Shown piece by piece: positions 15,021 through 40,511 of a DNA stretch of 64,000 nucleotides. The stretch comes from Malacoraja senta (Eukaryota). The DNA is taken from assembly GCA_038087875.1 (NCBI GenBank), contig CM075991.1, forward strand, positions 10,852,001 through 10,916,000, read 5' to 3'. How positions within the stretch are numbered: the stretch's first letter is position 1; every line of letters starts with the position of its first letter. Position numbers and translations under genes: made by a program. The notes beneath the pieces are model-generated. The model made no database searches. It was not told the DNA's origin and saw nothing but the letters and a program-made list of their open reading frames with translations.

Positions 15021-15185
<165 letters not shown>

Positions 15186-23209: not shown

Positions 23210-23246
23210 GGGGTGGAAGATTGCACCCTGTTTCGACTAATGCAAT
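23210..23246 (+). mobile_element. Internally deleted 5' end of the HDV-ribozyme-headed element
   Basis: GGGGTGGAAGATTGCA-CCCTGTTTCGACTAATGCAAT matches the 39990-39937 motif minus 16 nt (P3/L3 and part of P1'). Confidence 0.7.
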
Positions 23247-38098: not shown

Positions 38099-39659
38099 AC
38101 ATTATTGAATGAATTGTATTGGGTTGTTATCTAGTGATGCAGAGCCTAGATATTTCAGTGCAATAGAGACAAGAGATAAGAGACATGTACTGTCACATGC
38201 ACCAATTGGTACAGTGAAATTTGTGCTCACCATACAGCCATACGAATTAAAAAAATAAATTAAAAAAAAGTACTTCGAATATTACCACAGGAAACACATC
38301 ACGACTATATCACTGTATGAGGCACACCGAGACTATTACTGAAGGATGTGGTTTGGTATGTATCACTATGATGCTCAAACCAGGGATATCACACAGTGAT
38401 CATCACACTGCAAGGATTAGTGAAGAATGAACACCAGGGATATGACTGGGAGTCTGTGCATTGCTTGTGTTTCCTACCAGGCACATTAGATGCTGCACAC
38501 AGCTTCCAATGCATGCATGCTAACAAACTGTTTCTGGAACAGGAATTGACATGAGCTACAATAATAACCAGCCTTCCCTTGTCTAACAATTCATCTTTCC
38601 GTTTCTATAATGCAAATTTTGACAGTGAAAAATACAACCAGCTCTCGGGCACTGATGTAAATTTACAGTCAGAGAATCATAGTCATACAGGATGGAAACA
38701 GGCCCTTCAGCCCAACTTGCCCTCACCAACCAACAAGCCCCATTTACACTAGTTCCACCTGCCCACATTTAGCCCATATCCCTCTAAACCTATCCTATCC
38801 ATGTACCTGTCCAAATTTCTTGGAATTACTTTTCCCATTTTTCAGCTGAGTGGCCATTGGTAAGTTGTCCACTGTATTAATTTAAATAAAGGCCAAAGAT
38901 AGACACAAAATGCTGGGGTAACTCAGCGGAACAGGAGGCATCTCTGGAGAGAATGGGTCGAGACCCTTCTTCAGACTCCGAAGGCCGAGAGATTACGCAA
39001 TCATCTCTTGTTTTTAATCCCAAAGTTTATGGATCCAATTATCTTGTGGGTTATTCAGTTCTAAATGTGATTGGGGTAACTCAATTCCTTTTTTTTTTTT
39101 TCACCGACTCATCAAAAATTAACCAAACGCACAAAATTGGTTTGATGATTCAGCACATTTATCACAGGGAGTTTACGTAGTGTATCCCAAGACTGGCTCA
39201 TCCCACCAAGAGAGTAGAAGAATATTAACGTGGGATTGGAAAGGGACCCAAAACGTCACCCATTCCTTCTCTCCAGACAAGCTGCCTGTCCCCTTGAGTT
39301 ACCTTCGATTTTCCAGCATCTGCAGTTCCATAAATGCTGCCTCGCCCACTGAGTTTCTCCAGCATTTTTGTCAACCAGCATTTTGTGTCTGGTGATGTTC
39401 GTATCTCGGGACCAGAATTACACTTTGAGGTATTGGTTTATTATTGTCACAGGCAGTGAGACACTGTGAGAAACATTGTTTTTGCATGCGCTCCTCACAG
39501 ATCAAACCAAACCCAGTAGATACTAAAGCTGGAGTAACTCAGCGGGACAGGCAGCAGCATCTCTGGATAGAAGGAATGGGTGGTGTCTCAACCTTCACTT
39601 CTTCTTCTTTCGTGTGGCGTGCACAGCCTAAAGTTGTTGGACAACTTGTTCTATTTGAT

Positions 39660-39897
39660 GGTACACAAAAATGCTGGAGAAACTCAGCGGGTGCAGCAGC
39701 ATCTATGGAGCGAAGGAAATAGGCAGCGTTTTGGGCCGAAACCCTTCTTCAGACTGCTGAAGAACCAGTCTGAAGAAGGGTTTCGGCCCGAAACGTTGCC
39801 TATTTCCTTCGCTCCATTGACGCTGCTGCACCCACTGAGTTTCTCCAGCATTTTTGTGTACCTTCGATTTTCCAGCATCTGCAGTTCCTTCTTTAAC
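39660..39897. mobile_element. Palindromic Penelope-derived insert with two opposed hammerhead-like cores
   Basis: CTGAAGA-A-GGGTTTCGGCCC-GAAACGTT at 39770-39797 and a degenerate inverted copy at ~39726-39752; TSD ACTTGTTCTATTTGAT (39644-39659, 39898-39913). Confidence 0.82.
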
Positions 39898-39936
39898 ACT
39901 TGTTCTATTTGATCTTCCGTTTGTGCACGTCGAGTT

Positions 39937-39990
39937 GATTGCATCAGTCGAAACAGGGCGGACCACGTGAAGGTTGCAATCTTCCACCCC
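39937..39990 (-). ncRNA. HDV-like self-cleaving ribozyme (predicted, 54 nt)
   Basis: P1 GGGGUGG/CCGCCCU with G1·U; P2 GAUUGCA/UGCAAUC; P3 ACC/GGU; L3 UUCACGU; minimal P4 region GUUUCGA; J4/2 CUGA (CUAA in the 23210 copy). Segment order P1-P2-P3-L3-P3'-P1'-P4-J4/2-P2' is exactly the HDV topology. Confidence 0.75.
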
Positions 39991-40511
39991 GCGTCTCAAC
40001 CTGAGACGTCATCCATTCCTTCTATCCAGAGATGCTGCCTGTCCCGCTGAATTAGTCCAGTTTTTTTGTGTCTATCTTCGGTGTCAACCAGCATCTGCAG
40101 TTCCTTCCTACTCAAACCATACACAAGTACAGCCATTAGTGCAAAATGGAAAATAAACAAGAGTACAGAATATAGTGATAGAGCTAGAAAATGCAGATAG
40201 AAAAATTGCAAGGGGCGCAATGAGGTTGATTGGAAGATCGGGAATGCTTTCATCTCTAGCATAAGGGAGGTCTGTTCACGAGTTTGGTAACAATGTGGAA
40301 TAAGCTGTTCTTAAATCTGTCCCACTTGATCCACATTGCCCGAGAATTTTGTCTGCTCCCCCGATGATCCCCCGACCAGCGGCTGTAATCAAATCTTAAA
40401 CTGGGTGATATTGGAATAATTCATATGAGACATGAGAGTCAGCTAACCTCTTCTTTATGACCAATACCCTGTATCTGTACACTGTGGACATCTTGATTGT
40501 AATGATGCATA

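Follow-up and report, generated by a model that had tools for sequence, protein, structure and literature searches.

A short retroelement on the minus strand of a 64,000-nucleotide stretch of Malacoraja senta DNA (the window; assembly GCA_038087875.1, contig CM075991.1, positions 10,852,001 to 10,916,000) begins with a sequence that resembles an HDV ribozyme. The locus raises the questions of how such an element acquires its 5' end, and which protein moves it. We consider it probable that a Vingi-type LINE gave rise to the element by internal deletion, leaving it non-autonomous, and that the element's P4-less head likely self-cleaves and its RNA of ~140 nt is likely reinserted by a Vingi-type protein. 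Positions below are those of the window.

A complete HDV-type fold without P4

The minus strand from position 39990 can form the complete HDV-type fold that the original prediction described. It is the sole match to our HDV-topology descriptor on both strands of the window, and the same descriptor has no match in 150 dinucleotide shuffles (19.2 Mb). The fold, delimited by the descriptor and by alignment, occupies 54 nt (39937 to 39990) and consists of P1, P2, P3 and P1.1, arranged in HDV order as a nested double pseudoknot. P1 and P2 each have 7 bp, the former with a G1-U pair, P3 is ACC/GGU, and P1.1 is a single pair. J1/2 has 2 nt, L3 is UUCACGU, J1/4 is GU, and J4/2 is CUGA. G1 at the base of P1, the conserved C and G of L3, and the catalytic C that heads J4/2 (39947) are all present. 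P4 is missing, and a 5-nt loop joins J1/4 to J4/2 in its place, so the fold belongs to the minimal HDV-like class as judged by our own descriptor, not the published one.

The Rfam models are silent at this site, with no HDV or CPEB3 match at E<=10 and only hairpin artefacts on the palindrome described below. They likewise do not match the related heads L050, L113, L314 and L330, and they do match the sister families. The folding energy of the 54-mer is ordinary (z 0.13) with a folder that is unable to model pseudoknots. The head of this family likely self-cleaves 5' of G1.

Layout of the window copy

The window copy spans 396 nt, which comprise an element of 142 nt and an insert of 254 nt; the insert consists of a palindrome of 238 nt and a duplication of 16 nt. 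The predicted length of about 142 bp is thus correct once the insert, which had gone unmentioned, is removed. A 12-bp target-site duplication (TSD) adjoins G1 at 39991 to 40002, as had been claimed, and is 11/12 identical, with 10 nt exact, to the minus-strand copy found by repeat analysis at 39583 to 39594. The 3' end is also as originally written. Downstream of the ribozyme fold on the minus strand, the remainder of the 5' part (39914 to 39936) includes nucleotides 55 to 72 of the element, which match the 5' UTR of the parent LINE discussed below. It is followed by a 16-nt junction (39898 to 39913), the target of the Penelope-like insertion and the first copy of its duplication, whose sequence was not found in the ends of the parent. 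The palindromic insert (39660 to 39897, without assigned strand) has 100-nt arms that are 94% complementary by inverted-repeat analysis, and the second copy of the 16-nt duplication lies at 39644 to 39659 by repeat analysis. The 3' part (39598 to 39643) carries the last ORF codons and stop, a short 3' UTR and a (GAA)n tail, and is 93% identical over 46 nt to the parent copy L324. Positions 39929 to 39922 are complementary to 39625 to 39618 near the 3' end of the copy. In parent copies, the 5' and 3' UTRs, ~3 kb apart, show 8-11 nt of such complementarity, which in the short element closes a stem.

The whole retroelement lies in the middle of an outer palindromic element of a different family, recognised by its inverted repeats, with approximate limits 39516 to 40110. 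Elsewhere in the window, a second piece of this head, with an internal deletion, lies at 23210 to 23246 on the plus strand.

A recurrent site for palindromic insertion

We take the inner palindrome to belong to Penelope, because the peptide of its longer copies is presumably the end of a Penelope endonuclease. Two cores inside it, at ~39770-39794 (plus strand) and 39752-39728 (minus strand), we assume to be hammerhead-like; Rfam confirmed no hammerhead at the window palindrome. Penelope elements carry minimal hammerheads, according to the accessible part of PMC4209133.

The same junction between element and palindrome has 12 exact matches (L091-L102), two of which are probably one event. Old, intermediate and young subfamilies are all represented among the hosts, with diagnostic bases on either side of the insert, and the inserts themselves vary in length and centre, with duplications of 5 nt in some and 16 nt in others. 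Because the 12 junctions fall in different subfamilies with different inserts, they point to the 16-nt junction as a target hot spot for one Penelope-like palindrome family. Amplification of the 396-nt composite as a single unit from one master would also yield 12 exact matches to one junction. This explanation is rather unlikely, given the span of host subfamilies and the differing insert lengths, centres and duplication sizes. Moreover, L089 and L102 look like related loci without and with the insert, and the palindrome family favours similar targets elsewhere, where 9/20 sites start with ATC and 5/20 end with CAAGT (hand count). The palindrome would have entered the window copy later than the element's own insertion.

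The short-element family

Two head motifs, of 22 and 28 places, have 4,645 and 4,860 exact matches in the 1.94-Gb genome, and reversed controls have none. In the first 28 Mb, the two sets of 78 and 100 matches share 61 (hand count), an overlap that suggests some 7,500 heads or more in total. Most uninterrupted copies measure ~135-146 nt, which gives a family length of ~140 nt. Among 30 copies taken in order of position, a TSD (mode 12 bp) is present in 25 and absent from five; 18 of the 25 end within 1 nt of G1, and the other seven end farther from it. The 29 copies closest to that of the window are more uniform, with a TSD in 27 and 26 ending within 1 nt of G1. Family members thus begin at G1, as the original prediction had anticipated. 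Upstream flanks all differ among 85 copies, save for four duplicated loci, and 5' transductions are absent.

Ten sampled words from the family are all present in sequencing runs of six organisms. Loose ends of contigs pile up at 1500/1501, where G1 is 1501, and at the tail in 4/4 runs from four organisms, one of which is possibly the source itself. Because these runs are contigs (a type that we guessed), the loose ends speak for the presence of the element and not for its expression. The ribozyme core is absent from JGI metagenome contigs.

The element was predicted to be a SINE-like parasite without a Pol III promoter. It is indeed non-coding and non-autonomous, and neither a tRNA gene nor an A or B box was detected in it. 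However, it lacks the tRNA, 7SL or 5S head of a classical SINE, and its own head derives from a LINE 5' UTR. Its TSD and simple-repeat tail are those of target-primed insertion. Because a parent LINE gave rise to it by internal deletion, the precise class is a bipartite non-autonomous LINE, which is a known kind of element.

In the first 100 family matches, J4/2 is CGAA in 55, CUAA in 24, CAAA in 10, UGAA in six, CCAA in four and GAAA in one, so that the catalytic C is kept in 93 (hand counts). Selection on this base seemed plausible when 0/30 copies had it mutated. That idea was rejected because the asymmetry vanished at n=100, where six TGAA stand against 10 CAAA; loss of the catalytic C is no rarer than CpG decay would predict.

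At the 5' ends of L257 (G000:C8:937659-937804), L259 (C4:35489738-35489806) and L063, the opening ~26 nt of the ribozyme form tandem repeats. They look as if they arose by repeated template jumps at the RNA's 5' end.

The parent LINE and its relatives

The parent is a LINE of ~2.8-3.1 kb with a single endonuclease-RT ORF, and the short element shares its first ~72 and last ~46 nt. It came to light through an endonuclease search that picked out L277, a broken LINE with a single ORF; over 65 nt, the 5' end of L277 shows 95% identity with the short element. In the L277 family, the 5' part has 36 matches and the 3' part 512 candidates. A further copy, L314, retains both ends and has a TSD of 11 bp. 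Identity of the window element with parent heads is 91-96% over nucleotides 1 to 72, and with parent tails it is 87-93% over the last 46 nt, a region that takes in the final codons and stop of the parent ORF. The short element therefore has both ends of an autonomous-type LINE with the middle deleted. A Vingi RT had been named as the borrowed partner, and the L277 family, which shares both ends, fills that role as the parent of the short element.

Pfam identifies APE (PF14529) and RT (PF00078) domains in L277 and no RNase H, and neither L277 nor L314 has an intact ORF. Two sister families have open frames of 1014 and 986 aa, likewise with APE and RT and without RNase H by Pfam; L363 and L366 are sister copies whose ORFs are intact. 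A single APE-RT ORF without RNase H, as in the parent, is characteristic of Vingi elements according to a review available in part (PMC13708176). The nearest database protein (P0001, 1019 aa) is 72% identical and lists only RT and endonuclease families. In an RT tree that contains no named Vingi or Ingi row, the Vingi-type rows are separated (94/95) from those of Nimb/I, CR1 and Crack-like elements, and no match was obtained to any PDB entry named Vingi or Ingi.

A pattern built from a 9-residue Ingi/Vingi RT motif has 349 matches (control, 0) in at least 10 families, whose tails are like that of the short element. The parent is not among these matches and turned up by the endonuclease search. 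A search with PF14529 gave 30+20 loci, none of which shares ends with the short element; we take these loci to be I/Nimb-, CR1- and Crack-like. A separate two-ORF LINE family with many 1277-aa open frames (L146, L150, L176) is presumably I/Nimb-like.

Many parent copies (L312, L320, L321, L326, L329, L330 and L332) carry an inverted 5' piece that abuts the 3' piece, as in twin priming. The inverted pieces end at G1 or within 13 nt of it.

The 30 parent copies nearest L314, a sample ranked by likeness to that copy, differ from the column majority by 1.7-4.8%. The corresponding values are 0.6-1.7% for sister families F1 and F2 (n=9 and 5) and 0-3% for young short copies, many of which are at 0%. 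The parent copies examined are older and broken, and for this reason the youngest short subfamily may now be moved by proteins of the sister families. An apparent convergence of its tail on that of the sister families (ACACGAAA) amounts to two base changes and is no more than a weak hint.

Conserved and covarying heads

An HDV-type head is present in eight Vingi-type families for which the 5' end is visible, two of them recognised by eye only. In an alignment of nine heads, selected for their fit to the fold and without two near-duplicate rows, 155 of 162 cells pair and two-sided changes occur at 14 of 18 pairs; 10,000 shuffles of this alignment have a mean of 111 and a maximum of 128 paired cells. 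The covariation of P1 and P2 expected among copies of the short element is not visible within that family, which is too young. It is found between the related LINE families. The catalytic C, G1 and the G of L3 are conserved at 9/9 heads, and in the head of family F3 (L275:714-798) a U-A pair replaces C-G at P1.1.

Outside the genome, two of 19 related loci in metagenome contigs pass the descriptor, a few more were recognised by eye, and several lack a 5' end; viral contigs have no related loci. Within the genome, another short element, of ~170 nt (L466 and L469, ~1489-1660), has an apparently P4-less head with a 5-nt loop and different helices, and P2 does not pair perfectly in the copies inspected. 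A bipartite derivative of ~190 nt from another Vingi-type family (L452, L459, L468, L470 and L474, ~1489-1690) has a 6-bp P1 and CPEB3-like P2 and P3, scores up to 41 bits, and carries tails and TSDs.

Origin of the 5' end

The observations suggest a pathway that begins with internal deletion of a Vingi-type parent, which would have left a short element with both ends. Read-through transcription of the host could then produce a longer RNA that carries the element, and the 54-nt P4-less head would cut it just 5' of G1 to release an RNA of ~140 nt. A Vingi-type protein would recognise the ACG(C/A)AAGAAG tail and insert the RNA by target-primed reverse transcription, and for the youngest subfamily this protein might come from the sister families. 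Cleavage of this kind has precedent, because the HDV-like ribozymes of NARTc and SIDER cut at +1 in a flank-dependent manner in the available portion of PMC4035085.

Alternatively, transcription by Pol II from an internal promoter with its start at G1 might set the 5' end, with the fold serving as a shield, a translation element or a protein-binding element, and with cleavage being dispensable. Pr77 of L1Tc is described as both promoter and ribozyme (PMC4035085 and PMC8256844, each available in part), bipartite LINEs are expected to be transcribed by Pol II (Kojima 2018), and precise 5' ends without 5' transductions fit either route. However, the heads retain their catalytic C, their G1 and the G of L3 while the helices covary, which argues for catalytic rather than promoter constraint, and we regard this alternative as unlikely. 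It is very improbable that the head is a decayed ribozyme that has lost P4, no longer cuts and travels as a passive passenger: the silence of Rfam, the lack of CpG asymmetry at the catalytic C and the P4 regions of 22-40 nt in sister families are compatible with decay, but the parent head in L330 is P4-less too, the different head of L466 and L469 lacks P4 as well, and a natural P4-less HDV-like class is described, with a theta subset 'active in vitro', in the accessible text of PMC10879173.

Cleavage within TSPAN15 is doubtful

A self-cleaving head that releases the element from read-through RNA would, as the original prediction pointed out, also cut the host pre-mRNA at this locus. An exon at 15021 to 15170 has Tetraspanin-15 as its best PDB match (E 3e-19; Tspan10, 9e-9), and the window copy lies between exons at ~48045-47859 and 34728-34654 in sense orientation, as predicted. 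We take the intron to be intron 2 from exon homology, because exon 1 was not located.

Folding and duplex energies predict that the upstream flank (39991 to 40005, minus strand), an arm of the outer palindrome, pairs with J1/4, L4 and J4/2, including the catalytic C. At -15.3 kcal/mol, this duplex is the strongest of 82 copies (median -5.75), energies that serve as a relative ranking only. The G of the CUGA J4/2 is private to the window copy, being absent from 83 tallied copies and from the first 100 family matches, whose pattern fixes A at this position. With the family base at position 46, the duplex falls to -11.6 kcal/mol, so the private G is worth 3.7 kcal/mol. The window copy is thus predicted to be a poor cutter whose flank sequesters the catalytic strand, and the proposed cleavage of intron 2 is doubtful for that reason. 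That the copy alters TSPAN15 expression by cutting the pre-mRNA is quite unlikely despite its sense intronic position and its intact core pairs; ribozymes of this kind are known to respond to their flanks (PMC4035085, in the part available, and PMC8233481, 'Alt P1').

Relation to known elements and ribozymes

The ends-only architecture is that of the Vingi bipartite LINEs derived from Vingi-1_EE (Kojima 2011, cited in PMC5786205 and PMC4494074). Like the present element, those derivatives keep only the two ends of a single-ORF APE-RT LINE without RNase H and have no RNA-gene head. As a difference, eight Vingi-type families here show an HDV-type fold at the visible 5' end, two of them by eye only. 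The trypanosomatid elements NARTc, RIME and SIDER, with L1TcRz/Pr77, are likewise short and internally deleted and carry a 5' HDV-like ribozyme that cuts at +1 (PMC4035085, in part); we place R2 SIDEs (PMC3414825) beside them as short ribozyme-headed retroposons. In contrast to NARTc, RIME and SIDER, the present family is vertebrate, has a 54-nt P4-less head (Pr77 has 77 nt), a (GAA)n tail and thousands of copies, and stems from a parent without RNase H.

The minimal HDV-like and theta ribozymes of PMC10879173 also lack P4, have a short J1/2, and are predicted to cleave at G1. In the part of that paper available, a survey that also took in human, mouse and protist genomes placed nearly 99% of them in Caudoviricetes and tied them to tRNA 3' ends, whereas the window ribozyme heads a retrotransposon. 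No tRNA was found in L031, L050 or L113, so the heads are not of the theta type. The literature on minimal HDV-like ribozymes and retrotransposons, as partly available, yielded no P4-less HDV-like ribozyme on a retrotransposon. As far as these searches reach, such a ribozyme on a vertebrate retrotransposon is new. If correct, P4-less HDV-like ribozymes, reported almost only from phages, would gain a concrete job in an animal genome, and 5' ribozymes would extend to Vingi-type LINEs. The short element would also represent a natural, ~120-nt minimal set of cis-acting ends for a Vingi-type protein; one Vingi-type LINE is being built into RNA gene-writing tools, according to the accessible text of PMC13708176.

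The CPEB3-like heads of the sister families are the most valuable lead. On the Rfam model of the mammalian CPEB3 ribozyme (RF00622, cut-off 35), the F1 heads L449, L451, L455, L471, L258 and L261 score 57-64 bits, the best F1 copies reaching 59.7-64.2 with top scores of 63.8-64.2, and other Vingi-type families score 51, 41, 31, 30, 23 and 20. One F1 copy (L363) has an open frame of 1014 aa. By hand count, F1 agrees with the CPEB3 consensus at 44 of 55 positions, and where the helices differ, the changes compensate each other. Sister Vingi-type heads with up to 64 bits on this model are new, again as far as searches reach. The window element fails the model that F1 passes, and it has in common with the CPEB3 ribozyme the L3 sequence UUCACGU, J1/4 GU and a single-pair P1.1. 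The CPEB3 ribozyme differs in having a P4 and in being single-copy, conserved and intronic, whereas the Vingi-type heads belong to mobile elements.

We give an even chance to the view that Vingi-type LINEs are the source of vertebrate HDV-like ribozymes, with CPEB3 being a domesticated Vingi head and the window family a shrunken, 54-nt P4-less form that drives a ~140-nt parasite. Convergence is a real rival to such descent. Between the cores of R2 and HDV, 21 of 27 nt are the same, and the available part of a review calls that question open (PMC8256844). No link between CPEB3 and Vingi was found among the papers listed on Vingi elements or on the CPEB3 ribozyme, although Kojima 2011, Ruminski 2011 and Webb 2009 or their supplements could contain accounts of Vingi or Ingi heads in vertebrates; the words 'origin' and 'transpos' are absent from PMC8233481, and 'Vingi' is absent from a 2026 preprint. 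The origin of the memory-linked CPEB3 ribozyme should be testable through the sister heads. Traces of Vingi are present in the human genome as X12_LINE, according to the accessible portion of PMC5753468.
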